Positions 1 through 37,391 of a DNA stretch of 64,000 nt are shown here, in pieces. Position numbers and translations under genes: made by a program. Numbering within the stretch: the stretch's first letter is position 1; each line of letters begins with the position of its first letter. The notes beneath the pieces were generated by a model that saw nothing but the letters and a program-made list of their open reading frames with translations, did not search any database and was not told the origin of the DNA. This DNA is from Patescibacteria group bacterium (GTDB lineage Bacteria > Patescibacteriota > Minisyncoccia > UBA6257 > GWB1-50-10). The stretch lies in the NCBI GenBank assembly GCA_023474215.1, contig JAMCYI010000011.1, positions 16,739-80,738 of the forward strand. The letters run 5' to 3'.

Positions 1-202
1 ACCCCCTGCGGTACGTCGACGAAAGTGCAACACCGCGGGGCGAACAAAGAGCCGCAACCCGAAGGGGATACGGCAGATTTCCCCGCTGCCTTTGTCGCAT
101 TCGTCTCAGCGGATCGCTACGGATACGCCATCGGCTCCGCTTCGCGGCACTCGGTGAAATCTGCCAGTATCGCGGCTCGTGGTATTTTCGAGGTGGGTTC
201 TT

Positions 203-969: not shown

Positions 970-3153
970 TTACTTTTCTTGGAAGAGGTTGTTCACGCGG
1001 CCGACATTGATGCAGTCGGCATTCGTAAGGCACTGCCCTTCGGATTTTTCAACTTGCGATCCGCTTTGCTGCGGCTGAAGGCCGAAGCCGCTCAAGTCGG
1101 ATGATTGCGCACCAGTGATGCTTTGATTACAAACGCTGTTCGCGGTGCAAATGGGTACCGGCGTGCCCGTCGAGCTTGCGCCGGAAACGAGCGTCTTGAC
1201 CGCAGCCCACGTTGACCACGCGCTGTCCGGGTTCGCTCTTCCGTCCGTATAGTGCACCTTCACGCGGTACGCATAGATCGTGTCCGGCGAAAGACCGCTG
1301 TCTATAACCACGGGATTCGTCGTCGTTGTAACGGATATGAAGTATGGATCATATGGCGTCGTTTGCCCTTCCGCGGTCGAAGGGGTTGTGAAGAGGGCGA
1401 TCACCTTTCCGAAGCCGGAAGCTATGCCTTGCACCGCATTGGAAACCGCCGACGCAACGCTCTTCGCCACACCGTCAAAAAACCCGGCGACCGACGACAT
1501 GATCGCATGAAGAGCGATCTTCCCGCTCACGCCGGGGGTGAAACTGCCATAGGCGCTCGAAACAAAGGTCGATGTCACGGTGGCCGTTCCGCTCAAGTGA
1601 TACTGAGGGCCGTAACTGCTCCCGCAATTGCCGGAACACGACCATGAACCAAAGACATAGTTGACCGCAGGGCTCGCATTCAAGGCGACCTGCGTGCCGT
1701 TCAAAAAGCTCGCTGAACAACTGTTCTTGCCGCCGCCGCAATCGATGCCCGAAGGATTGCTCGCCACCGATCCTCCTCCAGTAGGGCTTATTTTCACGCT
1801 GACAATAAAGTTGGTCGTTGCAGACGATGCATTGCTCTGATTCGAACATGCCGTGACCCTGTTCCCCTTCACGGCATCGTATCCGATATAGCATGCCCGC
1901 ACGGTGTAGGAATGCGTCGTATCGGATGATAGGCCGGTATCCGCGTATGACGTCGTCGAAGACGACATCGTAGACAAAAGCGATCCGTCCCGCCAAACCT
2001 CGATATATGAGGCCCGCCCTGAGTTATTGGTCCAGCTCAAATCGATCTCAGACGTGCCGTTTGCCGAAACCGTGAGATTCGTCGGCGCATAAGGCGGCGT
2101 GGTCACTGAAAAGGCGGTGGACGGCCACGTGCATGCGATGTTCGGTTGACCATCGGGTCCAGCATTCAAAACGGCATTTCCGGTGCTTGAAGCATAGAGA
2201 CCGCTAAGTCCCAATGTCGAACATTCGCGGACACGGTAATAGTAGGTTGTCGCCTCGCTCAAAGATCCGTTTGTCACCCCGTCGGTCTTACTGAAACTCT
2301 TCGTGGGATTCATGGAATCGGGAATCCACGGCGTATCGGTTATTTTCGAAAGCACGGGTACTTGGGAATTGTTCTCGTAGTGAAATTGATTCGTCGTCAC
2401 AAAATATGTCGAAGTGCTTCGTTCGATCAAGCCATAGTAGGTTGTCGAAGTCGTGTTATCTTTCCAACTCACTGTGGTAAAGACGTCGGTCGGTGTATCT
2501 TCGGTCGCACTCGCCGAAGTCGACGTCGGATTGTTCGGTGTTACTTTCATCCGCTGCACGACGAACTGGTACGATCCGGCGGTCGATGTTGAATTGTCTT
2601 TCCAATTCAAGTAGACCGTCGAGGGGCTGTTTGCGAACGCTTGCACCAGGGTCGGCGCATCGCTCGTTGTCGGACCCTGCGACCCACCAATCGAGCACGT
2701 CGTCTGATTGCTGTAGCTGAAGTTACGAGGACCTTGAACTAACCGAAGAACGTAGGTATAACTTCCCGGTGCCGGCGGATAATCGCTATACGTATAACTC
2801 CCCCCCTGCGATTGTGGAGCATACCATATGGAACTTGTCGTTACGGAACCCGTGATGTAACCGGAGGGGGTTATGGGAACATAGTTGCCGGAAACTCTTA
2901 AAAGGTCCACCTCTTGCACTGCGGAATTCGAGCCGGTCCACGTCGTAAAGATGGCACTGTTGTAAGACTGGCAACTAACGGTATATGGCACCGGCGGTTT
3001 AGGCGGAGGTGTCGGGGATGTCTGGACGGTTATCGTATCGGAATCGCAATAGCTACTATTGCACATGCCGGCCCAAACCTTCACGGCAACAAAGCCGGTC
3101 AGGATAACGAGCACTCCAACGAAAACGATTGAAGAAATTTTCTTCCCCGTCAT
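970..3153 (-). CDS. large exported Ser/Thr-rich surface protein with repeated beta-sandwich (FN3-like) segments
   Basis: ORF 970..3219. Internal Met at 3153 gives a signal/anchor peptide MTGKKISSIVFVGVLVILTGFVAV, and an aaggaa RBS precedes it. Composition is S/T/N/G-rich throughout. Confidence 0.5.
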   Translation of the reverse strand: MTGKKISSIVFVGVLVILTGFVAVKVWAGMCNSSYCDSDTITVQTSPTPPPKPPVPYTVSCQSYNSAIFTTWTGSNSAVQEVDLLRVSGNYVPITPSGYITGSVTTSSIWYAPQSQGGSYTYSDYPPAPGSYTYVLRLVQGPRNFSYSNQTTCSIGGSQGPTTSDAPTLVQAFANSPSTVYLNWKDNSTSTAGSYQFVVQRMKVTPNNPTSTSASATEDTPTDVFTTVSWKDNTTSTTYYGLIERSTSTYFVTTNQFHYENNSQVPVLSKITDTPWIPDSMNPTKSFSKTDGVTNGSLSEATTYYYRVRECSTLGLSGLYASSTGNAVLNAGPDGQPNIACTWPSTAFSVTTPPYAPTNLTVSANGTSEIDLSWTNNSGRASYIEVWRDGSLLSTMSSSTTSYADTGLSSDTTHSYTVRACYIGYDAVKGNRVTACSNQSNASSATTNFIVSVKISPTGGGSVASNPSGIDCGGGKNSCSASFLNGTQVALNASPAVNYVFGSWSCSGNCGSSYGPQYHLSGTATVTSTFVSSAYGSFTPGVSGKIALHAIMSSVAGFFDGVAKSVASAVSNAVQGIASGFGKVIALFTTPSTAEGQTTPYDPYFISVTTTTNPVVIDSGLSPDTIYAYRVKVHYTDGRANPDSAWSTWAAVKTLVSGASSTGTPVPICTANSVCNQSITGAQSSDLSGFGLQPQQSGSQVEKSEGQCLTNADCINVGRVNNLFQEK

Positions 3154-3234
3154 TTCCTTTATTATAGCAAATCGATACGCCGAGAAACATGAAACCCCAT
3201 GAGGTAGATACACACTCATGGGGTTTGCTTGTTG

Positions 3235-4539
3235 CTAGTGAACGAGATAGACCGGCGACTGGCTCGCGGTCACGGTGCATTGCCCGTTTTGAACGGTTAC
3301 GGTTTGGCTGCTCCCGGTAAGCGTCGTGAGCGTTGCGCTTGATCCCGCGATGTTCCCGACCGTTACCGTCTGTGGAGTATTTGCCGTAGTCCAAATGGCA
3401 TCTATCGTCTTCTGATTCCCAGAAAAACGGTATTCGAAGATCCCGTTTCCGAAGCTATTGCTCTCGAAAGTCGCTCCACCGAGGATTCCCGTAAGAGTCT
3501 GGTAGGCATCGTAGTCCTCTTTTGAAGACAGCGCCCGATCGCGATGAACGAGACCGAAGTTATCCTCGTAAGGATCGCCCGTCCCGTCATCCCGGAAATC
3601 GTACCAAAATACCTTTTGGACTTCCGGCAGAGCGAGCAGTTGGACATATGCGCGGACCAGGTAGTCGGCTTGCTGGCTTTCTGATACGTAAGACACTCCC
3701 GTCGTCCATCCTATCTCGGTAATCCATAGGGGCTTATCCGGAAACAAGTCGTGGAAACCGGCGATCTGTCCGACGAGCATGCTGGGATAGGTGGTGTCGC
3801 CGCGCACCGTGATATCGGGTGCCACGCCGGGATACAAATCGACCGCAAGGATATCGAAATAGCTCGACCCGCCTGCGGCGTATACCTGGCTCACAAAAGA
3901 TGTGTCGGTTCCGACAACGCCTCCCATAAGAATATGGCTTTCCGGCGCAACGCTCATGATTGCTTCGTAACTTGCCCTCAAGAGCCGTACATAATCGTTC
4001 GCGTTGGGGGTTGGATGCCAGAACATCGAGAAATCTTCTTCGCTCCAGATTTCCCAGTAGTGAATCTGGTTTTTGTACCGACCCACAACTGTTTCCACAT
4101 AGCTGCTCCATTCAGCGAGCATGGTATCGGTCAAGGAAGACATATCCTTGTGATTGTTGGCTGCGCCCCACCATGACGCTCCATAGCAGAGCATCCCCAA
4201 CACGTTGATCTTCGCCTTCAGTTCCCCATTTACCGCCTTGTCGAACGGTGACCAATTGAATTGGTTCTTCTTCGGCTCGAGAACCGTCCACTCGAAAGAT
4301 TCCCGCTGCCATCGAATTCCGGCATCTGCCATCTTCGCGATAGCGGTACCAATGAGCGCGGTGTCGCTCCCCTGGTAACGGGTTGCAAGACAAGTAGTGG
4401 CGCCAAAAGGCCAACTTTCATATTCCGAGGCGAAGGTTGGGGAATCGGGAGGGTTCGGATTTGGATTCGGAGACGGAGCATCCGGCGGCTTGCATCCTGC
4501 AAGGGTAGCCACCAAGAGCATAAAAACTAATCGATTCAT
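3235..4539 (-). CDS. lipoprotein glycoside hydrolase (TIM-barrel, clan GH-A-like)
   Basis: Lipobox LVATLAGC followed by a PNPNPNPP linker. NQIHYWEIWSEED and LWITEIGWT motifs are typical of retaining GH-A nucleophile and acid/base regions. Confidence 0.55.
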   Translation of the reverse strand: MNRLVFMLLVATLAGCKPPDAPSPNPNPNPPDSPTFASEYESWPFGATTCLATRYQGSDTALIGTAIAKMADAGIRWQRESFEWTVLEPKKNQFNWSPFDKAVNGELKAKINVLGMLCYGASWWGAANNHKDMSSLTDTMLAEWSSYVETVVGRYKNQIHYWEIWSEEDFSMFWHPTPNANDYVRLLRASYEAIMSVAPESHILMGGVVGTDTSFVSQVYAAGGSSYFDILAVDLYPGVAPDITVRGDTTYPSMLVGQIAGFHDLFPDKPLWITEIGWTTGVSYVSESQQADYLVRAYVQLLALPEVQKVFWYDFRDDGTGDPYEDNFGLVHRDRALSSKEDYDAYQTLTGILGGATFESNSFGNGIFEYRFSGNQKTIDAIWTTANTPQTVTVGNIAGSSATLTTLTGSSQTVTVQNGQCTVTASQSPVYLVH

Positions 4540-4699
4540 GAATTACCTCCTGTTCAAGAAATTCTTTTTCGTTATAAATATATGTAAATGTTCTTTTATC
4601 TCAGGCAAAACTTCTGTAAAAATCATACAATAAATGCGTCATGTTGTCAAAAACGGAAAAGAGGTTCAACTTTTTAAGCTGAACCTCTTTAAACAATGA

Positions 4700-6082
4700 T
4701 CACTTGAGAAGAACCATCTTCTTGGTTTGAGTGTAGTTTCCTGCACTCAAGCGATAGAAGTAGGTGCCGCTGGGAAGTGTTCCAGCAGCGAAGGATATTT
4801 CATGAACTCCTAGGTTCATTTCATCCTCGACAAGAGTTTTAACTTCTTGACCGAGAACATTGTAAACCTTGAGTGTCACGAAAGTCCTTTTCGGAATTTC
4901 GAATCGAATCGTGGTCGTCGGATTGAAGGGGTTCGGGTAGTTCTGAGACAGGGCAAAGGTGCTCGGGTTGTGAGTTGGCTCGTCAACAGCAGTCACGGTT
5001 GTTGACGACACGACGTACACGCCATCATCGGTACCGACGAGAACGCTGTCTTTCCCGTAAGGATACAGACAACTTACGTTTTTCCCGATGAAGTCGACGT
5101 CCTGCCACGTGGTACCCGAATCGGATGAATAGTAAAGACCTCCGTCTCCAGCGATACCGGTTCCGATATCGTTATGGAAGGCGGCCCATACTTTTCCATC
5201 TACAGCAAGAACGGCAGAGGCATACATGGGCATGGGAGTTTTTCCCGTCACCTGTGCCCAACTTATGCCGTCATCCGTCGAACGGAAAACACCTTCTCCA
5301 TCGGTCGCCGCGAAGACGAAACCAGTCGAAGAATCTGAGGTAAGACCCCAAATGTTATAGCCGTTGGCTTTCATCGTTCCGTCGGGATTCGTGCTACCGT
5401 CTCCGATAGTACCGATCTCGCCGATTAAACCGCTGTCGGATTTTATCCAACTACCGCTATCACCATTGGCGGTGGAACGATAGATGCCCTCGACATAACC
5501 TTGAGGGTCACCATTACCGGTACCCGCAATGACTGTTCCTTTTGGCGTGACAGTTACGGCACGGAATCCCCCGATTGGAGGATTGAGCACATCGGACCAA
5601 CTTGAACCATTATCGCTCGAACGATAAATGGAACCGCCAAAGCTCGTTCCTACAAATATGTTGGAATCCTTCACCGCTATTGCTAACGGGCTCGGAGAAC
5701 TCATTTTAGAAACGGAGTTCCAAGAATTACCATTGTCAGTGGAATTAAAAAGATCTCCTCCCGTTCCCAAAAACAAGGTTCCGTTTGAACTCGCCTCGAT
5801 CGCATACGCAGAGGCAAACGGCATATTGGCGCCCTTCAGACCATTCATTAAATGGACCCAGGTGCTCCCCCCATTTGAGGAACGATAAAGATAATCGGTT
5901 CCGGTACCCACGAAAATAGTTCCTGTTCTGTCCACAAAAAGACATTGGGCAGCGGCATTGACCTTCACTCCGTCCAATACCCGATCCACGCCGAAATTCG
6001 TCGTAGCACTTTGCTGTGCCACGGCATCTACCGGCATCATGCTCGCAAGGAGCACAAAAGCCGAAAGAATGATTGCTTTCAT
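4700..6082 (-). CDS. exported BNR/Asp-box repeat protein with T9SS-type C-terminal sorting domain
   Basis: Signal peptide present. At least five SxDxGxTW Asp-box repeats (SSNGGSTW, STDNGNSW, SSDNGSSW, STDDGISW, SSDSGTTW). C-terminus NYPNPFNPTTTIRF...VYNVLGQEV...GTYFYRL...KKMVLLK matches the Por secretion system CTD consensus. Confidence 0.7.
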   Translation of the reverse strand: MKAIILSAFVLLASMMPVDAVAQQSATTNFGVDRVLDGVKVNAAAQCLFVDRTGTIFVGTGTDYLYRSSNGGSTWVHLMNGLKGANMPFASAYAIEASSNGTLFLGTGGDLFNSTDNGNSWNSVSKMSSPSPLAIAVKDSNIFVGTSFGGSIYRSSDNGSSWSDVLNPPIGGFRAVTVTPKGTVIAGTGNGDPQGYVEGIYRSTANGDSGSWIKSDSGLIGEIGTIGDGSTNPDGTMKANGYNIWGLTSDSSTGFVFAATDGEGVFRSTDDGISWAQVTGKTPMPMYASAVLAVDGKVWAAFHNDIGTGIAGDGGLYYSSDSGTTWQDVDFIGKNVSCLYPYGKDSVLVGTDDGVYVVSSTTVTAVDEPTHNPSTFALSQNYPNPFNPTTTIRFEIPKRTFVTLKVYNVLGQEVKTLVEDEMNLGVHEISFAAGTLPSGTYFYRLSAGNYTQTKKMVLLK

Positions 6083-6216
6083 TTTGAATCGCTCCTTTCG
6101 AGCTTTTATCCAGTTAAAATCAGTTAATTAAAATTTTTTCACAAGGATTAAAAGCTACTTAATCCTTGACTATCAAGTATTATACCATAAATCTCGAAAA
6201 AAAGGAAGGGGTCGAT

Positions 6217-8475
6217 TTAGTGCAGTAATCCTCGCACTTTTACGTAGTAGGTGGTGTTGGCGTTAAGATTGGTTATGGGCTGCACGTAAGTGCCTGTCGC
6301 CGTAGAGTTTAGCACGTTGAGAGTATTCCATATCGACGGATTACTTGAAGTTGCATAGAGCACTTGGTCGTCTTTTGCATAGCTCTGCGGATTGGTCCAC
6401 TGCACCGTGAAGCTGTTCGATGTCACGCTTCCCGGCTGAATGGTGACGTTCGTCGGCCACGTGTTCGATGCCACAGGAGTGGTGGACGACGTCTGTACGC
6501 AGTAAAGCCCGTTTTGCGGATCGCTCACGTGGCTCGGATCGCAGAAAGAAATTTGCCCTATGACGTTCGCGGGAGTCGTCGCTCCCGAAAACGTGCCGGA
6601 AGCGAGAGCAAGCGATACGCCGGAAAGATTGACGTAGCCGTCAGCCGATCCAAGCGAGGGATCGGAAGTCAAAAATCTTGCATAGCCGGAAAGGGCGCCC
6701 GTACTCATGTTCACCGTCGGAAGATTGAAGCCCGGATACGTCGGATCCATGTCCCCTTCGTTGAACGAGAGCCAGCCGTAGCCGCAGCTCGGACGCGTGT
6801 CGCCTGAGAGGCATGAATTGCCGCTCCATGCATATCCCATTAGCCTCCCGGTATCGGGATTCAGGTAAACGCCGTAAGAAATCGGGCTCGTGCCGCTCAA
6901 GTTCGGCGAAACGGTATCGGAACTGAACTTCACCCAGCCGACGGCATTTGCCGCCGATGAGGGGATTGTGGAGCTGCCGGCCCACGCCCAGCCCTTCACG
7001 GGCGACATTTTGCTCAAATCGAGCGTTATCGAAGACCGGGGAACGATGATGACCGGCGTTGCATCGCCCGGGTTCAATTGATAGCTCGTTATACGGTACT
7101 GAACCGTCTGGCCGATGGTTGGCGAATCGATGTAGCAGTTGAGGGACTGAGCACCGGGACACTGCACGGTGAGTAATTGCCATGTCTGGCCGTTATCGGT
7201 GCTCTTTTGCGGATTGAACGATTGGAACTGGCCGGCCGAACTCCACAAGACCGGCACCGTGACGGTATTGTTCGAATTCACGTTTTGCACGACGGCCCGG
7301 AAGTTGCCGATCACATAGGCAGTTGTGATCGAGGTTTGTCCCGCAAATGAGCAGCCGTTCATGCTGCACGCCGATATGGAGTACGTGTAACCGGTCCCGT
7401 AGCTTGCCTGGTTATCCGTGAAACTCCTTGCGCTGCCGGAAACTGTTGCTAAAGGAACAAAACTTCCTTGGCCCGTTGCACGCTGCAAGACAAAGTGATC
7501 CACGTAGCTCGAGGGGCTCGCATCGCTCCACGTGAGCTTCACGGCAACCTGGCCCTGGTCGGGATGAAGGCCCGTACCGGTCGTCGTCGCGGAAAGTCCC
7601 GTCGGCGTGCGCGGTACGATGACGGTCGATACGCCGGACGCAATGGTCACCTGGTTCGAATCTTTCACCGTCACGCTGTTTCCGGAAACCGTATCGTCGG
7701 AAAACGGATGACAGTACAAATCCGTTTGGTAGTAGTTGATCGAGTAAATGCTGTCGCCGTTGAAAGAAACATTGCTGTCGGGAACGATGAGCGAGCCGCC
7801 GCTGAATATGCTGGATGCGCTGTATCTCGTGAGCCCCCATTGATTGGGGCCGCTTTTGCTGATCATGATGCCGAAGGTCTTGAGGTCCCGTCCGCCGAAT
7901 TCCGGATCGATCGGGATGTTGATACTGACCGAACTCCCGCCGGTCGTCGAAAACGTGGCGCCTTGCGGCCCGTTTTGATTGATCGACGGCAGGGCAGGCG
8001 TCGTTGCCGACGCTGAAACTTTGACGCCCGTTTGATAGCTGACCGGTTGCGATGAATCGACCGGCCATATCGAATAATTAATCTGCATATTGGGGTCGAG
8101 GCCGACGTAATTCGAGAGATTCGACGAACCCGGGGCGCACTGCTGGATATTAGTGAGGCCCGTGGCCGCCGTGCCATTCACGCTCGCTCCCAAAGCATCG
8201 TCGATGCAAACTTTCGGCGAGGTGTTTTGGGGATCATTCCCCAAATTGAACCCTTGCGAGGTATTGATGCTCCCCGATCGCGAAAACCAAAATGAAACGC
8301 TTGGTTGATTGGGGTTGCTTTGCCAGCCAAGTTCGATGGCGCAGGCCGAAACGGGAGTTGCCGTGAAATTGGAGATCGACGGCGTCGTTTGAGCTTTCAC
8401 CTCTGTGTGCAACCACAAGCCGGCCGCGAAGACGACGGCAAGGAGTATAAAAAATGAAATTTTTAACTTGCTCAT
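6217..8475 (-). CDS. large exported protein, S/T/N-rich (possible FN3-like repeats)
   Basis: ORF 6217..8499. Start at 8475 (MSKLKISFFILLAVVFAAG signal peptide) gives an ATGA stop/start overlap with the upstream gene. Last gene of a four-gene exported-protein operon. Confidence 0.5.
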   Translation of the reverse strand: MSKLKISFFILLAVVFAAGLWLHTEVKAQTTPSISNFTATPVSACAIELGWQSNPNQPSVSFWFSRSGSINTSQGFNLGNDPQNTSPKVCIDDALGASVNGTAATGLTNIQQCAPGSSNLSNYVGLDPNMQINYSIWPVDSSQPVSYQTGVKVSASATTPALPSINQNGPQGATFSTTGGSSVSINIPIDPEFGGRDLKTFGIMISKSGPNQWGLTRYSASSIFSGGSLIVPDSNVSFNGDSIYSINYYQTDLYCHPFSDDTVSGNSVTVKDSNQVTIASGVSTVIVPRTPTGLSATTTGTGLHPDQGQVAVKLTWSDASPSSYVDHFVLQRATGQGSFVPLATVSGSARSFTDNQASYGTGYTYSISACSMNGCSFAGQTSITTAYVIGNFRAVVQNVNSNNTVTVPVLWSSAGQFQSFNPQKSTDNGQTWQLLTVQCPGAQSLNCYIDSPTIGQTVQYRITSYQLNPGDATPVIIVPRSSITLDLSKMSPVKGWAWAGSSTIPSSAANAVGWVKFSSDTVSPNLSGTSPISYGVYLNPDTGRLMGYAWSGNSCLSGDTRPSCGYGWLSFNEGDMDPTYPGFNLPTVNMSTGALSGYARFLTSDPSLGSADGYVNLSGVSLALASGTFSGATTPANVIGQISFCDPSHVSDPQNGLYCVQTSSTTPVASNTWPTNVTIQPGSVTSNSFTVQWTNPQSYAKDDQVLYATSSNPSIWNTLNVLNSTATGTYVQPITNLNANTTYYVKVRGLLH

Positions 8476-9113
8476 TGTTTTACACATGTATAAACCCAAC
8501 CGTTCGGCGCATCATAATTGCTATGGGAACCCATGAAACCTTCCAATATTTTTACCATGGTATAACCAGCAGCACAGCCGTTAGCACTCGAAAATTGATT
8601 GGAGACGCCAACAGCGGAATCGTTGAAGCCGCCGTTATTGTCGCATTGACTTATTGTAGCTTGACCCGTTCCAGCGATACCGCAAACATCACCCTGCGGT
8701 GGAAGGACAAGCGACCCAACCGTTACATTACCGCTCATTTTGAAAAGTCCGCCGCTTAAAACCAAATTACCGGTCTGCCCGTCTTCATACGAAGAAAAAT
8801 GCGTTTGGCCGTTCGCGACGGAAAGCATCGACTGCTGGGGAAAATTGATGAACGTATTGCTACCAAAAGAAAGGGTTCCGGGAACTTGAAGTCCAAAAGA
8901 GTTGCCACCCAATACGCTGACCGACCCAACAGAGAAATTTCCGGTTTTTACTTGAGCCGAAGGACCTTCGTCGACGGGAATGACGCCCCCGCCGCCGGCT
9001 ACATACGGAGGAACGGTCGGTTCGATAAAGGAAGCTCTCACCAAACCGAAGTAGGCCACTTGAACCGCAAGGAAGATCGCAACGATGATCAAATAGCTCG
9101 TTTGTTTTTTCAT
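8472..9113 (-). CDS. exported protein, paralog family member (Cys-rich C-terminal domain ...CAAGY...CVKQ)
   Basis: Signal/anchor MKKQTSYLIIVAIFLAVQVAYFG. C-terminal motif is shared with the two upstream genes. Confidence 0.5.
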   Translation of the reverse strand: MKKQTSYLIIVAIFLAVQVAYFGLVRASFIEPTVPPYVAGGGGVIPVDEGPSAQVKTGNFSVGSVSVLGGNSFGLQVPGTLSFGSNTFINFPQQSMLSVANGQTHFSSYEDGQTGNLVLSGGLFKMSGNVTVGSLVLPPQGDVCGIAGTGQATISQCDNNGGFNDSAVGVSNQFSSANGCAAGYTMVKILEGFMGSHSNYDAPNGWVYTCVKQ

Positions 9114-9117
9114 AATT

Positions 9118-10047
9118 TTATGTTTTCACGCAAACATGGATATCGTTAGTGCCACCGTCGATCACATACTTACCGAAGTCGACACGCTGGTATCCGGCGG
9201 GGCAGCTTTGATAAGCACCGTTGGGGTTATAGCCGCCGCAATCGTAGACCAAGTGGTCGGTATAGAGCCCGCACCATTCACCCTTAATCGGGAAATCGTT
9301 TTTGTTCACCATGACCGTACCCGCCTGAATGTTCACTCCCCCACCCATCGGCTGATAGACGAGCTCCGCATAATTATCATATTGAATTATCTGACCGATC
9401 ACTCTGCCGTACTGATCAACGCAATTTCCGCTTCCATCGGAACTGGCCCCCGAACCGTAGAGAGTTTGGCAATCCAAAAATATTTTTTCATAATCATACC
9501 CGTAACTTCCTATCGGCGGAGGCGTCGATTGACCCTTGTATGGAGCATTCACGGCACCGCTGCAATCGATGTTGTCGGTCGTGTCACAAGAAAGTATCTC
9601 GGACTGCTGCGCCGCCGTCATGGAAGAGGTCGATACGTACACCCCATCCTCTTGCCAAACACCGAAACCGGAGATCGCTTGGCTTATCAAGGTACTCACG
9701 CTGCCGTCGGTCCCAATGGTAAACCCAATGTCTTGTCCGGTCACCGGCGCCGGGAAGAAAACGTTCAATTCGTTGTTCCCGAAACCTATCCGATTGCTCC
9801 CGCCGTTCGGGGCACAGCCTTGATTGCCGTTGCCGCTGAATATGATGCATCCCCCGTTCGCCTTGAAGGTGACGCTGTCTTGGGGCGTCTGGAAGGAAGA
9901 TTGGCTCATCGATAGATCGCCTGATTTCGTTTGTCCCGAAGAATTGGTCGTAACGGGCATCGGCGATTGCTGCGCGCTCGCCAAAAGAGTCGCCCCCTCA
10001 ACGAGAATGATGGCGATAAAGAGTGCGATGAGCGATTTTTGTTTCAT
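9118..10047 (-). CDS. exported protein, paralog family member (C-terminal WCG...CPAGY...CVKT domain)
   Basis: ORF 9118..10275 trimmed to the Met at 10047 (MKQKSLIALFIAIILVEGATLLASAQ signal peptide). The longer ORF would overlap the upstream gene by about 200 nt. Confidence 0.5.
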   Translation of the reverse strand: MKQKSLIALFIAIILVEGATLLASAQQSPMPVTTNSSGQTKSGDLSMSQSSFQTPQDSVTFKANGGCIIFSGNGNQGCAPNGGSNRIGFGNNELNVFFPAPVTGQDIGFTIGTDGSVSTLISQAISGFGVWQEDGVYVSTSSMTAAQQSEILSCDTTDNIDCSGAVNAPYKGQSTPPPIGSYGYDYEKIFLDCQTLYGSGASSDGSGNCVDQYGRVIGQIIQYDNYAELVYQPMGGGVNIQAGTVMVNKNDFPIKGEWCGLYTDHLVYDCGGYNPNGAYQSCPAGYQRVDFGKYVIDGGTNDIHVCVKT

Positions 10048-10057
10048 AAGTTCCGGT

Positions 10058-11416
10058 TTACTTCTTAAAGCAGGTATCGACGGTATCTGGCCCATACGTC
10101 CACTGTTTATGCTCATACCCCGCGGGGCAGCCGTTTGACGGCAATATCCCTTGGCACGCTTCGGATCCGAATATTTTACTCCCCGTGCTTGCCAAATTAC
10201 CGTTACTGTCGTGGGCGTAGGCATCTTGAGATACGAATCCGCACCACGTTCCGCGCATCGGAACCGGGATTCCATTCACCGTCAAAGCGCTGCCTCCGGG
10301 GACCGATAAGACGGTTCCGGTCGGTTCCCATTTCTTGACAAGATAGGTCGTAGCAGCGTTGTTCGGCGTCGGATAACATCCGGCAGGATAGCCGATCTTG
10401 TACGGCCCGCTGGGGCAATAGCTGCACGATCCGGCTCCGTTATTGCCGCCCGAGGAATTATAGTAGTAGGTACAGCTTGCCACGTACTGCGGAACATATT
10501 CGGTATCTCCGAAAGCCGGGCAGCCCCCTCCTCCGAATGCGTTATTACCGACATAGCTTTGTGTGCTTACTTGAACCCATTGCCCCACGGCGCTCGTAAT
10601 GTCTATATTCCCCGCGCTGTCGAACGACATTCCGCATCCCCATTCCGGAGATCCGGAGAAGCTGTCGGTTGTAGCGGTAATGTAGAAATTTTTCCCGTAG
10701 CTGTCATAGTACATTCCTCCCTTCGGGTTGTAGCTCAAGGGGTCGATCAAATCGACCGCTCCACTGGGAAGTAAACTGATGCCGATACTGCTCAACGAAC
10801 TGTTCGCAATGCTCAATGTCCCCGACTTGACCTGCGTCGTCGAACCAATATCAAGGAAGTTCCCGACTTGGTTCTTCGGTGCGTAGTTCGGATTGTTGAT
10901 CGTCGGGCCGGTTGGGCCGGTTCCGGTACTCAAGTTGAAGCTGACGACTTTCACGCTCGAGAGATTGGTGGTAGGGCCAAGATATATTCCGTATGCTTCG
11001 ATTTGGCTGGCGTTCGCCACGGTGTCGGAAAAGGAAACGATCATGTTGGCATTACTCTGATAGGGATTAATACTGCCGCTTCCCACAAGTGTTGCGTTCG
11101 ATTTCGAGAACTGATTTTCGGAGCGATAGATCCAGTACGGCTGGATCGTCGAGTTGGGATTGTAAAACTTTATGGTAAGGGTAACGGTCGATGCATAGAG
11201 AGACGTGTTCGTCGCTACCGTGACCACCGCCGATTGCGGGTGCGTCGTCTTATTGCCGCCATTCCCATTATTATTGCAATTGGGGTTCGTTGGGGGGCAC
11301 GGCTCTTGAGGGACAACGGGTGCGCCGAAAACTCCTCTCGGCGCCGACACCAACACGCCGATTCCCAAAACCAAGAGGAGCGTCACGGCAAAAATTTTAA
11401 AGTTTCTTGGAAACAT
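10058..11416 (-). CDS. exported protein, paralog family member (C-terminal WCG...CPAGY...CFKK domain)
   Basis: Signal peptide MFPRNFKIFAVTLLLVLGIGVLVSA. C-terminal about 70 aa share the GTWCG / CPAGY / C-x-K pattern with the two downstream genes. Confidence 0.5.
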   Translation of the reverse strand: MFPRNFKIFAVTLLLVLGIGVLVSAPRGVFGAPVVPQEPCPPTNPNCNNNGNGGNKTTHPQSAVVTVATNTSLYASTVTLTIKFYNPNSTIQPYWIYRSENQFSKSNATLVGSGSINPYQSNANMIVSFSDTVANASQIEAYGIYLGPTTNLSSVKVVSFNLSTGTGPTGPTINNPNYAPKNQVGNFLDIGSTTQVKSGTLSIANSSLSSIGISLLPSGAVDLIDPLSYNPKGGMYYDSYGKNFYITATTDSFSGSPEWGCGMSFDSAGNIDITSAVGQWVQVSTQSYVGNNAFGGGGCPAFGDTEYVPQYVASCTYYYNSSGGNNGAGSCSYCPSGPYKIGYPAGCYPTPNNAATTYLVKKWEPTGTVLSVPGGSALTVNGIPVPMRGTWCGFVSQDAYAHDSNGNLASTGSKIFGSEACQGILPSNGCPAGYEHKQWTYGPDTVDTCFKK

Positions 11417-11451
11417 TTTTAAACTTGAATATGATATAATGATTATACCAT

Positions 11452-11946
11452 ATGCAACAGAATAAATTTAAGGTGATCATATACGTCTTAGCCGGCATCT
11501 TGATTTTAGTCGTCGGATTCATTGTTGGTTTTTACGCCGGCAGGCAAAACGGGCAAGCGATCGGCGAAGCGGCCGGCCAATCGCAGTACAAAGCATTGGT
11601 TGACTTTGCCTACCCTGCTCCAGCTCAAGAAATTCACGAAATATCCGGCGCCGTCAAATCGATCACCGCGAATTCGGTCACCTTTGTGGCAAGAGATCCG
11701 AACGATTACTTGCCGCACACCGACGGCTCTCCCTTCAGGCAAATCACCCTTACGGCAAATACGACCGCAAGCACCACGATCATGTCGGTCGACTATTCCA
11801 CGCTTGACAAGAATGGCAATCCGAAGACCGCCATCATCAGCTTGAACGACCTGAAGATCGGACAGATCATCACCGTCGACAGCAACGCCAATATACGCGA
11901 CGTTTCAAGCTTCGACGCGACCGTGATACGGGTGGTCAACCATTAA
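11452..11946 (+). CDS. membrane-anchored hypothetical protein
   Basis: N-terminal TM helix KVIIYVLAGILILVVGFIVGFYAG. No recognisable catalytic motif. Confidence 0.4.
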   Translation: MQQNKFKVIIYVLAGILILVVGFIVGFYAGRQNGQAIGEAAGQSQYKALVDFAYPAPAQEIHEISGAVKSITANSVTFVARDPNDYLPHTDGSPFRQITLTANTTASTTIMSVDYSTLDKNGNPKTAIISLNDLKIGQIITVDSNANIRDVSSFDATVIRVVNH

Positions 11947-13842: not shown

Positions 13843-14520
13843 TCAGTTCAAGATGAGCTTGCCGACGACGCCGGCTTGAGCACGTCCCGGTACGTCGTCA
13901 TGAAATCCGTAAATACCCGGCTTCATAATGACAAACGTGAGGAGCCGCGCACTCGAAGGCCCCACGCCGACGCTGATTGAAGAAAGGCTTGGATTGTCGA
14001 ACTTGAAGACGTGCGTATTATCATCGCTTGAAATGATCGCAAGCGTAATAATGCCACCCGCTTGGCCTGTAATGACGACCGGCGAAAAGCCGGTCGAGCT
14101 CACAGTGAGCTTCACCGCATTCGATGGTATTTGATCCTGCCCGATTTGACCCGATTGGCTGATCAGCCTGTAATCGCCGGAGGACAAACTCGGACCCGTG
14201 ATGCTCGCCCCCGCCGACGATCCGCCGGATGACGGGGTTTGCTCGCTGGGGGTTTGATTTCCGGTACTTGTGGCCGGTGCGGTCTCCGCGGGCTGACTCG
14301 GCGTTTCCACGGGAGGAGTTGTTCCTTGGCCTTGATTCCCGTTCGGAGTTTGCTGGTTCAAAGGAGGCAGAGTTACGGTTTCAGTCGATGTCGACTTGCC
14401 CCCCAAAAGACCCCCGACGTTTCCGAGCGGGGCAAGAAAGAAGATACCAAAGAAGACGATCGCGACGACAATGAGACCGATAAAAAGAAGGATGATGATG
14501 AGACGAATGGCATCTTCCAT
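13843..14520 (-). CDS. membrane-anchored hypothetical protein, Pro/Thr/Ser-rich linker, cupredoxin-like C-terminal fold without copper ligands
   Basis: N-terminal TM helix. C-terminus KPGIYGFHDDVPGRAQAGVVGKLILN resembles plastocyanin-like strand topology but has no Cys. Confidence 0.35.
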   Translation of the reverse strand: MEDAIRLIIILLFIGLIVVAIVFFGIFFLAPLGNVGGLLGGKSTSTETVTLPPLNQQTPNGNQGQGTTPPVETPSQPAETAPATSTGNQTPSEQTPSSGGSSAGASITGPSLSSGDYRLISQSGQIGQDQIPSNAVKLTVSSTGFSPVVITGQAGGIITLAIISSDDNTHVFKFDNPSLSSISVGVGPSSARLLTFVIMKPGIYGFHDDVPGRAQAGVVGKLILN

Positions 14521-15152: not shown

Positions 15153-15236
15153 GTGCCCGGAGTCGGACTCGGACCGACACGCCCTTGCGGGCAACAGATC
15201 TTAAGTCTGTCGCGGCTGCCAATTACGCCATCCGGG
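15153..15236 (-). tRNA. tRNA-Leu (anticodon TAA), class II with long variable arm
   Basis: GCCCGGA acceptor, anticodon stem ACAGA/TCTGT with loop CTTAAGA, variable arm GCCC-GCAA-GGGC, T-arm GTCGG-TCCGAGT-CCGAC (C at position 55, unusual). Confidence 0.7.
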
Positions 15237-15273
15237 CAGTTTCAATTCAGTTTAACGGGTTACCGACTAAGTT

Positions 15274-16002
15274 TCAATGTTGTTTACTATTATGCGACTT
15301 ATGAATTTGATAGTCGGGTATCCTAGAAAGGAATATGGCTTTGCGCTCCAGTCCTATTGGGAACCCAGGATAATACATATAGCGCAATAACTCATCGGAA
15401 TCTTTCATCCCATACCCCAACTTCAAAGAGGCGCCATTATTAAACACACCCAGCGCTTTCAATGGGAGATTGATTTCTTTCTTAAGGATGAACATAAGCT
15501 CTTCGAGAAACTTTCTGCTACCTGACGTAAAATTGGTCCTTAATTCACGAGCAGGTCGACCGTCCTTTGTTCTAATATACTCAACGAAGAAAACACTACC
15601 GTCGCCATCAAAATAGCCCCTTATAAAATCTCTTAAATATTTTCTTGGCACACGAGGAAAGGTAATGGTTTTACTTTTACGCCTGAATCCACCAAGTTTA
15701 GTTAAAGATCCATAGAGATGTTTCGAGTGAAAACTAACATGCCAAGCATCGTCCCCCTTGCTCCTCCTCACTGGATTAGTAGAGCTCATCGCAGACCTTA
15801 TATCCATCAGAATGTGCTTATCATTAGAGCACAACACCACCCTATATGATCGCTCCTTCCTCATATAACCGTCCGCAAACCAGAAACCAAGAATGTAAGC
15901 CATGGACGATGACCACTTATCAAAGAACTTCTCATTGAGGGTATACTTTCTACTGTGATATTTGCCTTGGGTTAATATCTTCACAAAAATATTATATCTC
16001 AA
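15274..16002 (-). CDS. LAGLIDADG homing endonuclease (double-motif)
   Basis: Two LAGLIDADG motifs, ILGFWFADGY and RGYFDGDGSV, about 100 aa apart. The longest ORF starts at TTG. MAYILGFWFADGY (Met at about 15904) is an alternative start. Confidence 0.8.
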   Translation of the reverse strand: MRYNIFVKILTQGKYHSRKYTLNEKFFDKWSSSMAYILGFWFADGYMRKERSYRVVLCSNDKHILMDIRSAMSSTNPVRRSKGDDAWHVSFHSKHLYGSLTKLGGFRRKSKTITFPRVPRKYLRDFIRGYFDGDGSVFFVEYIRTKDGRPARELRTNFTSGSRKFLEELMFILKKEINLPLKALGVFNNGASLKLGYGMKDSDELLRYMYYPGFPIGLERKAIFLSRIPDYQIHKSHNSKQH

Positions 16003-16063
16003 TGAGGCTTAAATAGGAATCGAACCTAACAACTAATAAAAAGGTTTTCATCGTTGTCTTTTG

Positions 16064-16135
16064 AGGCGGCAGCCGGAGTCGGACCGGCGCATAGTGGTTT
16101 TGCAGACCACCGCGTTACCGTTTCGCCATGCCGCC
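16064..16135 (-). tRNA. tRNA-Cys (anticodon GCA)
   Basis: GGCGGCA acceptor, anticodon loop CTGCAAA, discriminator U73 as expected for Cys, T-arm GCCGG-TCCGACT-CCGGC (C55, as in the neighbouring tRNA-Leu). Confidence 0.7.
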
Positions 16136-35978: not shown

Positions 35979-37391
35979 TTATTGATACGTCGCCTGGATC
36001 CACGAGAGCATGCTTTTTGCATCTTTCGCATAGTCGTCCGATCCCAAAACGATAATCACATACGGCCGCTCTTCGGTTGGAACGGTCGAGGTTACGGTTG
36101 ATATTGTTGGGGTGGACGACGTTGCATCGAGGACTGGGAATTCACCGTTGAATATCGAAACGATGGTTCCGCTCGCCGCTCCATTTTGCCCAATCTTTCC
36201 ACCCACAAAATCCGGGTTGTCGGCGAAGACGTTGAAATTCTGAAGGTGCGAAAAAACGCTCGGGCCGTACGCGTTTGGAGCATTGTTATCCGTCGTCATT
36301 TTCAGGATGAAACTCCGGTTGTTGTAGAGATACCGCGCGAAGAGATAGAGATCGTGCGCCGTCGAGACATCACCCCAGTCGCTCCCCGACACATCCACGA
36401 AATGGGTTTGAGTCATGCCGATCGATTGCGCAGTCTGGTTCATGAGGTTCACGAAATATTTCGGCCCGAGGAAATACGAGATGGCGACGGCCGCTTCGTT
36501 CGATGATTCCCTAAGGAGGGGCTGCAAAAGATCGTAAAGGGAGAGCGTTTCGCCGGGCTTGAGGCGCGGAACGGATGTCGGAACAATCATCTCGGGCGTT
36601 ATCGTGATCGTACGCTCGATATTCACGTATTCCACCGCGACGAGCGCAGTCATGAGCTTCGTTAAGGACGCGACGGAAAGCACTTCGTCGGGATTCTTCT
36701 CCGACATCACGAAATTGCTTTCGAGATCGGCCGCGAGATAGCTCTTCGCGCCGATGCCGGGCCCCTGCACCGTTTCCTGAAAATTATCGCTCTTAAAATC
36801 ATCGCTCACGACCAAAACCGGCGTCCCGACGGAAACCGAATCGTACAGCGCTTTTGCATCGGAAGTCGACAGGCGGATGCATCCGCCGGAATACGTGGAC
36901 CCGACCGGCGTACCGTCCGGATAGTACGGCCAGCCGTGGATTAGGAAGTTCCCCTGAAAATCGAGCGCCCATGGACTATAGACATGGGCGATGCTTGAGT
37001 AGTCGCTTGGGATCTTTGATTCGACTTTATAAAGACCGGTCGGCGTTTCCCACCACGATCCCGGCTTCCCCTTTGAGAGGACGGTCACGTCCTCGGCGAT
37101 GGTGCCGTCTTTGTAATATTCCAGCCGCATCGTCGAGAGGTTGACGTAAATGAAGGTCGCTTTCTCGCCGACGAACGTTCCTAAGATCTGCTCATAAAAG
37201 TTTGCGTTCGAAAGAGCCGGCCAGGCGCCATACTGAAACACAATGCCGCCGGGCGTTCCCGCTGGAAGATTAATCTCATAGTTGTAGACGATCTCGCGGT
37301 AGAACACGAAGGCGCCGACCAAGATTCCCGCGACGATCACGAGCGAGACGATGGCAGCCCACAAAGGAACGCGATAGCGAAATACCCCCAT
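35979..37391 (-). CDS. bifunctional peptidoglycan enzyme: N-terminal L,D-transpeptidase (YkuD) domain fused to C-terminal D-alanyl-D-alanine carboxypeptidase (S11-like)
   Basis: LDT motif HGWPYYPDGTPVGSTYSGGCIRL. Serine-peptidase SxxK motif ASLTKLMT and SxN (SSN) downstream. N-terminal TM anchor. Confidence 0.7.
   Translation of the reverse strand: MGVFRYRVPLWAAIVSLVIVAGILVGAFVFYREIVYNYEINLPAGTPGGIVFQYGAWPALSNANFYEQILGTFVGEKATFIYVNLSTMRLEYYKDGTIAEDVTVLSKGKPGSWWETPTGLYKVESKIPSDYSSIAHVYSPWALDFQGNFLIHGWPYYPDGTPVGSTYSGGCIRLSTSDAKALYDSVSVGTPVLVVSDDFKSDNFQETVQGPGIGAKSYLAADLESNFVMSEKNPDEVLSVASLTKLMTALVAVEYVNIERTITITPEMIVPTSVPRLKPGETLSLYDLLQPLLRESSNEAAVAISYFLGPKYFVNLMNQTAQSIGMTQTHFVDVSGSDWGDVSTAHDLYLFARYLYNNRSFILKMTTDNNAPNAYGPSVFSHLQNFNVFADNPDFVGGKIGQNGAASGTIVSIFNGEFPVLDATSSTPTISTVTSTVPTEERPYVIIVLGSDDYAKDAKSMLSWIQATYQ

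Follow-up and report, generated by a model that had tools for sequence, protein, structure and literature searches.

A conserved operon of four predicted exported proteins in a Patescibacteria contig, with a rare four-cysteine module at the C-termini of three paralogs

Do three adjacent genes for exported proteins that end in a similar cysteine-rich stretch share a genuine domain, and if they do, what might that domain be for? The question is raised by the locus 6217..11416 in a 64,000-nucleotide stretch of DNA from a Patescibacteria group bacterium (assembly GCA_023474215.1, contig JAMCYI010000011.1, positions 16,739 to 80,738 of the forward strand), and this whole stretch is called the window below. 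The four genes of the locus lie on the minus strand of the window and are labelled A to D in the order in which they are read.

10058..11416, minus strand: gene A, 452 amino acids (aa); signal peptide at residues 1-31, a β-rich body found in A only at about residues 60-170, a B-homologous region at 263-451, C-terminal module
9118..10047, minus strand: gene B, 309 aa; signal peptide, body, C-terminal module
8472..9113, minus strand: gene C, 213 aa; signal peptide, short body, C-terminal module
6217..8475, minus strand: gene D, 752 aa; signal peptide, weak fn3 (residues 674-749) and Asp-box matches, without the module

The answer reached here is that A, B and C are, judged by their sequences, paralogs that each end in one module of 55-95 residues with four conserved cysteines and conserved W, G, P and Y, and that this module represents a rare, predicted extracellular domain family that is lacking from the curated libraries searched. 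The pattern common to the three C-termini is G-x-W-C-G … C-x-G … C-P-x-G-Y … C-x-K, and the copies are placed as follows.

10061..10330, minus strand: A module, residues 363-452; core 389-452 (10061..10252); cysteines C392, C421, C430 and C449
9121..9357, minus strand: B module, residues 231-309; core 9121..9285; cysteines C259, C270, C282 and C306
8475..8759, minus strand: C module, residues 119-213; core 8475..8693; cysteines C144, C157, C180 and C210

The B module is the most compact and the most conserved of the three, and that of C is the most divergent copy, with CAAGY instead of CPAGY and a second cysteine that comes earlier than in A and B. In profile-profile alignments the four cysteines are collinear in every pair. 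A shared module of about 70 aa had been claimed in an earlier note on this DNA; the C-terminal module is real, but the homology of A and B is not confined to it and extends over about 150-190 residues (hhalign aligned A 263-451 with B 152-308). A weak N-proximal motif, Q-(V/T)-K-(S/T)-G-x-(L/F)-S, is common to all three proteins. No fourth copy of the module was found in the window. Within A, residues of about 258-318 (about 10463..10645, minus strand), with 'PEWGCGMSF … GGGCPAFGD … VASC', resemble a degenerate extra copy, although module hidden Markov models (HMMs) did not detect it.

The first concern with secreted proteins rich in cysteine and glycine is that a shared pattern may arise by chance or from composition. 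Single-sequence BLASTP was marginal, with E-values (E) of 3e-4 for A-B, 0.05 for B-C and 0.09 for A-C, and the weak values for the two pairs with C speak for such an artefact, as does the position of C as the weakest match (E 0.023) to a profile of foreign modules. Against it, Smith-Waterman scores compared with those of 3000 composition-preserving shuffles gave z = 8.3 for A-B (reached by 0 of 3000), 4.6 for B-C (3 of 3000) and 4.0 for A-C (9 of 3000), and hhalign of the ortholog alignments returned a probability of 95.5% and E 1.5e-8 for A-B and E of about 2.5e-4 for both A-C and B-C. With the foreign-module profile, from which the window was excluded, A (E 3.5e-7), B (E 3.2e-4) and C ranked as the top 3 of 675 six-frame ORFs (open reading frames) of the window, which are exactly the three adjacent genes. 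Across 24 modules, which come from at least seven unrelated proteins, the four cysteines and the positions of W, G, P and Y keep the same linear order, and the module is conserved under purifying selection. Nor is it of low complexity: the residues conserved in it are W, C, G, P, Y and K. An artefact is refuted as far as sequence statistics allow and retains a negligible probability; the shuffles, the profile-profile alignments and the foreign profile agree with the earlier proposal that the three proteins are paralogous and that their four-cysteine C-terminal module is genuine.

How far the family reaches was explored with a search of the kind that had been suggested earlier, by running a profile built from the three modules of the window against 1.84 billion representative proteins. 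There were 11 matches at E < 1e-3: A, B and C of the own lineage (3), false positives by our judgement (3) and true distant members (5). The true members (P0008, P0011, P0012, P0013 and P0014) align over the whole module, with all four cysteines and the WCG, CPxGY and C-x-K motifs. The rejected matches (P0009; P0010, a trypanosome FAZ1 repeat protein; and P0015) are repeat proteins, and the cysteine pattern is absent from P0015 and from the sampled stretch of P0009. The consensus of the family reads G-x-W-C-G … N-x-G … S … C-x-G … C-P-x-G-Y … D-S-x-x-D-x-V-x-T-C-x-K. One more member, P0020, was found in a word-indexed homolog search with the three-module alignment, and was its sole result; in it, one module is flanked by a tail-fibre-like segment on one side and a weak Gp10_C-like end on the other. 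The same search with a 15-module alignment gave no result, this type of search being a poor fit for a short, divergent domain. A metagenome contig scan with a four-module alignment matched 71 stretches, of which none was confirmed, and tblastn of the three-module array against phage and plasmid collections gave no match.

A further carrier emerged when fetched loci were scanned with the module profile. Directly after P0014, and overlapping its stop by 4 nucleotides (nt), lies a gene for a PKD protein of at least 1872 aa (locus L015 3406..9021, contig CAZDUE010000065.1, assembly GCA_964508575.1) with three compact modules of 52-58 aa at residues 1385-1564 (full-sequence E 6e-9); this protein had been used in none of the profiles. 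A neighbouring gene in L015 matches RNase_P_p30, a subunit of archaeal/eukaryotic-type RNase P, so the carrier, with a GC content of 35%, may be an archaeon. The P0020 gene (L011 1755..3900) starts abruptly and adjoins a 197-aa phage-integrase-family gene and a restriction-modification system, and this locus may be an invertible or shufflon-like cassette. In general the module is carried by lipoproteins or by proteins with a signal peptide, whose other domains are PKD or unknown (lipoboxes are present in P0008 and P0014). The carrier genes on long contigs stand alone, with housekeeping genes of outer-membrane-bearing bacteria around them; the genes that adjoin P0011 and P0013 include some for outer-membrane assembly. 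Where long contigs exist, no conserved neighbourhood that would hint at a function was seen around the carriers. Taken by sequence, then, the family is very rare and without annotation, and its members sit in otherwise unrelated, predicted exported proteins and lipoproteins of other microbes.

The novelty of the module, also proposed in the earlier note, was borne out in every library consulted. No Pfam family covers A, B or C at E <= 1, and the same holds for PHROGs apart from one chance-level match (E 0.8). NCBIfam gave a single match on the three proteins, at 13 bits against a cutoff of 65, and PADLOC gave none. The modules of the distant members are likewise unmatched in curated libraries, including Pfam, and full module profiles found nothing significant among the sequences of the PDB. 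An AlphaFold2 (AF2) model of the A module, built from a 21-sequence alignment, is all-β with a predicted local distance difference test score (pLDDT) that averages 70 and rises to 78-90 in the final 40 residues. Foldseek with this model at pLDDT 70 detected no similar fold in PDB or BFVD (best E 0.49 and 0.05, respectively, with template modelling scores of about 0.2). Full-length B modelled without an alignment reached a pLDDT of 40, which is unusable. A literature search turned up no described Saccharibacteria Cys-rich adhesin and no 'RbmA-like' pilus protein of the candidate phyla radiation.

The three paralogs are embedded in a unit whose layout could be read directly from the ORF list and the sequence. 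The genes are co-directional and tightly packed: the TAA stop of A is followed after 10 nt by the ATG of B, the TAA of B after 4 nt by the ATG of C, and the stop of C and the start of D share an ATGA overlap. A longer ORF for B (to 10275) runs into A; the 309-aa start at 10047 is the one that has a signal peptide and is conserved in relatives. No terminator-like site was found on the minus strand within 6217..11416. Ahead of A lies a short stretch that separates it from a divergent gene.

11417..11451: divergent intergenic region, 35 nt, upstream of A (sequence read)

It holds TGgTATAAT at 11442..11450 (minus strand), 25 nt upstream of the ATG of A, which is a by-eye consensus match only, and no −35 element was found beside it within these 35 nt. 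The order A-B-C-D, followed by a BNR/Sortilin protein, is the same in every related contig recovered. A word-indexed search of a 5.8-billion-protein collection gave close orthologs of A only, in five clusters of 78-100% identity, the orthologs themselves being 78-87% identical to A, and a metagenome contig scan with protein D yielded just one further copy of the same operon. A–D is one conserved, tightly packed unit in a narrow lineage.

All four proteins carry what look, on inspection of the translated sequences by eye, like Sec-type signal peptides with a basic n-region, a hydrophobic core of 15-19 residues and a small-x-small site, and the putative cleavage sites are VFG|AP in A, ASA|QQ in B, VRA|SF in C and VKA|QT in D. 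S, T, N and G together make up 38-42% of the mature proteins. The cysteine counts are even in all four (12 in A, 10 in B, 4 in C and 12 in D). The description given by the earlier note (four co-directional genes with 4-10-nt spacers and one ATGA overlap, coding for exported proteins, the first three of them S/T/N/G-rich) was therefore accurate in coordinates, gene order and composition, and the order is kept in all related assemblies.

Where that note finds no support is in its suggestion of diversifying selection. Four orthologous operons were compared pairwise, with synonymous divergence (dS) up to 1.3 and in sliding windows of 30 codons. The ratio of nonsynonymous to synonymous substitution rates (dN/dS) was 0.10-0.19 for A, 0.10-0.22 for B, 0.09-0.18 for C and 0.12-0.16 for D, and the highest ratio of nonsynonymous to synonymous differences per site (pN/pS) in any 30-codon window was 0.70. 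A–D are all constrained coding genes under purifying selection, and hypervariability is restricted to short loops. The most variable stretches (the loop between the first and second module cysteines, C1 and C2, in A; the central part of B; and the final loop of C) reach a pN/pS of only 0.4-0.7. Two of them are placed here.

10157..10240, minus strand: hypervariable loop C392–C421 of the A module; identity 0.48-0.54, indels, pN/pS 0.54-0.56 among the four orthologs
9379..9507, minus strand: hypervariable middle of B, about residues 181-223; unrelated sequence in orthologs, identity 0.34-0.51, pN/pS 0.54-0.70

The C1-C2 loop of the module is the most variable part of A among orthologs. The B module shows an ortholog identity of 0.87-0.92 and a pN/pS of 0.06-0.11.

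What the module might do is best approached through its copy number. Exactly three tandem modules are found in each of P0008/P0019, P0011, P0013 and P0014, as in the giant PKD protein. When repeats were compared among P0008, P0011 and P0013, mean scores were 138 for second against second and 131 for third against third repeats, versus 113 for second against third, and this positional likeness suggests that the triplet was inherited as a unit. Because every multi-module protein found has exactly three tandem copies, with repeats 2 and 3 conserved by position, the module may be a disulfide-stapled β unit that acts in threes, as in pseudo-threefold folds of the β-prism or β-trefoil kind. Folds of this kind usually have sugars or other surface ligands as their binding partners. 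The disulfides themselves are predicted from the even cysteine counts in all four window proteins. Pairing of C1 with C2 and of C3 with C4 is suggested because repeat 1 of P0014 has lost C1 and C2 jointly and kept C3 and C4, and it fits the strand order predicted by AF2.

Put together, the explanation that accounts best for the locus, and which is given about an even chance of being right, is that these are exported, disulfide-stapled β modules that work in threes, with A, B and C binding a ligand at the cell surface. In outline, A–D would leave the cytoplasm by the Sec route and fold with disulfides. The three blades would then come from three co-translated chains, the C-termini of A, B and C joining into one heterotrimeric head or each forming a trimer of its own, with the disulfide-bounded hypervariable C1-C2 loop of A exposed on the head; the variability of that loop suits an exposed, ligand-facing position. 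The complex, probably with D, would stand on or near the cell surface and bind a ligand on a partner cell or a polymer, which is in line with the attached way of life in this group. Those Saccharibacteria and relatives that have been cultivated live fixed to other bacterial cells. By their sequence features A, B and C are probably ligand-binding surface proteins, and perhaps they form a heterotrimer. The boldest form, in which a lectin-like fold, encoded by other organisms as a tandem triplet in one chain, has been split by this ultra-small, host-attached bacterium over three co-translated chains and a C1q-like heterotrimeric head with its hypervariable loop serves as a host-recognition device, is unlikely to hold in full.

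D always comes directly after C, as it does in all related loci, contains long stretches that are 100% conserved and is probably a partner of A, B and C. At about residues 500-640 of D, stretches 100% identical among orthologs carry repeated G-W-A-W-A-G, G-Y-A-W-S-G and G-W-(V/L)-(K/S)-F motifs. They matched no family and no PDB entry, and D as a whole had no match among PDB sequences. Motifs like these may also be present in large surface proteins from other bacteria within the candidate phyla radiation.

Several points weigh against the proposal of surface modules working in threes. No LPXTG motif or lipobox is evident in A–D and the signal peptides look cleavable, so the proteins might simply be released from the cell. 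A, B and C have no one-to-one mapping onto positions 1, 2 and 3 of the tandem repeats. The family sample comprises about nine proteins and the regularity of three rests on five cases, and the degenerate stretch in A, if it is a real second module, would break the count.

The same observations could be read in another manner, with the module as a self-anchor that holds each protein to the producer's own cell wall or S-layer, the variable bodies being the displayed functional parts of proteins that act singly. In keeping with this, A, B and C all end in the module, no part of B is better conserved than its copy, the bodies are very unlike one another in both length and sequence, no other anchor is visible in the three proteins, and three tandem copies are a classic format of wall-anchoring repeats such as SLH. 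In A, however, it is the module that contains the most variable loop, which better suits a ligand-facing surface; P0008 and P0014 already have lipoprotein signals and would need no second anchor; and the members come from differing envelope types (P0011 and P0013 near outer-membrane-assembly genes), for which a common wall ligand is improbable. On this balance self-anchoring is held to be unlikely, and binding of a ligand by A, B and C is preferred.

If ligand binding is preferred, the type of ligand matters, and one known fold would point to a lipid. MABP is the lipid-binding domain of MVB12, perforin-2/MPEG1 and Photorhabdus plu1415. Were the module a subdomain of a divergent MABP-type, type-I β-prism, the proteins would dock on a partner's membrane, for lipid uptake or membrane attack, and not on a glycan. 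MABP consists of three homologous subdomains with a PxGY signature on the second strand of each, and bacterial versions are found in MACPF and cell-wall proteins (PMC2881412); the MABP domain of MPEG1 binds acidic lipids (PMC6753088). The likeness consists in a tandem homologous triplet, a PxGY strand, an all-β make-up and the existence of bacterial secreted or cell-wall versions (PMC2881412). In the family CPxGY is at least 90% conserved across modules and directly precedes a strand predicted at 72-79 in the AF2 model. A profile of the C-terminal half of the module matched five MPEG1 sequences in the PDB at E 0.007-0.08 (best 0.0073), at the MABP domain's three CP(P/A/G)G(Y/F) sites, and the best E of a reversed-profile control was 0.89. 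The module profiles touched no PDB family besides MPEG1, which they matched in each case at its three CPxGY sites; with the full-module profile its E was 0.21.

The match is at the level of a motif, however, with aligned stretches of just 10-13 residues around CPxGY, and the same motif also draws an unrelated insect peptide. No Pfam model fell on the modules even at E <= 10 (a threshold partly honoured by the HMMER filters), a three-module profile and a compact three-module sequence found nothing in the PDB, and Foldseek with the single-module model returned no β-prism. At 55-95 residues, with two predicted disulfides and WCG, the modules are also longer than an MABP subdomain, for which about 50 residues are estimated here from an MABP of about 150 aa. 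The tandem-of-three feature is present in P0008, P0011, P0013, P0014 and the giant protein of L015, whereas A, B and C have one module each and would share it only if the three chains assemble. The idea that the module is a β-prism subdomain is best kept as a lead with a real but minor chance of being right, not as a classification, and membrane docking of the MABP type, taken as the explanation of the locus, is improbable.

A second three-repeat protein, VMO-I, resembles the family in motif: each of its three repeats has C-(P)-x-G-Y … D-D-T-A-x-N-x-Φ-x-Φ-x-C in the register of the family's C3 … DDSxADxVxTC(C4), as verified on the 1VMO sequence. In VMO-I a disulfide joins the first to the last cysteine of each repeat. 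Homology to VMO-I (VOMI) was rejected at an hhalign probability of 2-3% and a Smith-Waterman z of 1.1 against shuffles, leaving a motif resemblance.

The setting of the operon raises one more alternative. In two related loci (L001 and L002) the gene order runs A, B, C, D, the BNR protein, a large Flg_new_2 protein, ComF and PilM, and with comF and pilM a few genes away A–D could be an accessory set of a type IV pilus, made up of a tip adhesin and minor-pilin-like partners. Three small proteins and one large one resemble minor-pilin/PilY1 operons, and a variable loop bounded by a disulfide close to the C-terminus is reminiscent of the pilin D-region. Pilin identity of A, B and C is excluded, though, by their N-termini, as neither they nor their orthologs have a prepilin leader (G|F/M-x-x-x-E) or an N-terminal pilin helix, and ordinary Sec signals are found instead. 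There are no matches to pilin families, three unrelated genes separate the operon from comF/pilM, and bases 1..178 of the window do not encode a PilM start like that of L001. A pilus accessory role is very improbable, and ligand binding by exported modules in threes stays the preferred account.

Around the operon, the window contains further genes for exported or membrane-anchored proteins, three of them (within 970..6082, minus strand) exported proteins encoded downstream of D on the same strand.

11452..11946, plus strand: 164-aa membrane-anchored protein without a family; divergent from A, next to which it is conserved in all related loci
4700..6082, minus strand: BNR/Sortilin propeller with a C-terminal domain of the type IX secretion system (T9SS) type (Pfam and NCBIfam)
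3235..4539, minus strand: glycoside-hydrolase-like lipoprotein, with weak matches to clan GH-A and an N-terminus …LAGC
970..3219, minus strand: large fn3/Flg_new_2 protein (Pfam and NCBIfam)

An 11-kb island of surface proteins had been described here, and for 970..11416 the description is fair; the list behind it omitted the glycoside-hydrolase-like lipoprotein that lies inside, and one gene of the island is variably present among relatives. At the place of 3235..4539 there is an ORF of similar length in the related locus L007 and a 67-aa ORF in L001 and L002, and this glycoside-hydrolase-like gene is probably variable among close relatives. The C-terminal sorting domain of 4700..6082 matches PF18962 at E 3.7e-10 and TIGR04183 at 47 bits against a cutoff of 23, and it is conserved in related loci. 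T9SS is typical of outer membranes of the Bacteroidota type, which makes it odd beside the closest labelled relative, Candidatus Saccharibacteria. The flanking genes are housekeeping genes, namely ClpP, tyrosyl-tRNA synthetase (TyrRS), IF-2, several tRNAs and other tRNA synthetases.

Some other genes of the window were noted in passing. At 13843..14520 (minus strand) lies a gene, conserved in synteny, for a 225-aa membrane-anchored or exported protein in which a low-complexity linker occurs together with a cupredoxin-like domain. A free-standing ORF like LAGLIDADG-type homing endonucleases (15274..16002, minus strand; PF14528, E 1.5e-10) sits between tRNA-Leu (15153..15237) and tRNA-Cys (16063..16135), and a single ORF of 470 aa at 35979..37391 (minus strand) combines L,D-transpeptidase (YkuD) and D-Ala-D-Ala carboxypeptidase (Peptidase_S11) domains.

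To our knowledge, little is known about how Saccharibacteria-type cells recognise and hold their hosts besides type IV pili. The A–D operon, with its exported and predicted disulfide-bonded paralogs that share a module of binding type, is a concrete candidate for that task. The occurrence of a new domain family in threes is an unexpected regularity and gives a structural prediction. If the division among three chains is true, nature would here have split a repeat fold over three genes, which is unusual; if it is false, an unannotated extracellular domain would be an ordinary addition to the catalogue.

Among known systems, the sorting domain of the T9SS (Por_Secre_tail) comes to mind at once, being likewise a β domain, some 70-80 residues long, in which several exported proteins of one genome end, and a true example is encoded two genes downstream of D at 4700..6082. 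In contrast to that example, A, B and C have no match to PF18962 or TIGR04183. In other proteins the module is N-terminal (P0011), internal (P0013, P0020 and the giant protein of L015) or C-terminal (P0008 and P0014), and such N-terminal, internal and tripled occurrences argue against a C-terminal sorting signal, a role that appears unlikely from these sequences. Trimeric fibre adhesins, such as the MAT fibres of Bdellovibrio and phage tail fibres, also combine a variable body with a small β-rich C-terminal domain; their C-terminal binding domains are β-rich and sometimes have a disulfide (PMC10769870), and P0020 has its one module inside a tail-fibre-like chain. They differ from A, B and C, where neither a fibre region of the β-helix or coiled-coil type nor an S74 chaperone was detected. 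With the C1q-type heterotrimers there is no relation in sequence or fold, and A, B and C lack a collagen stalk, but by analogy the two would follow the same logic of three adjacent paralogous genes, divergent stalks and one C-terminal β domain per chain. By its inferred function, the module shared by the operon would be kin in type to the cysteine-rich binding modules of secreted proteins.

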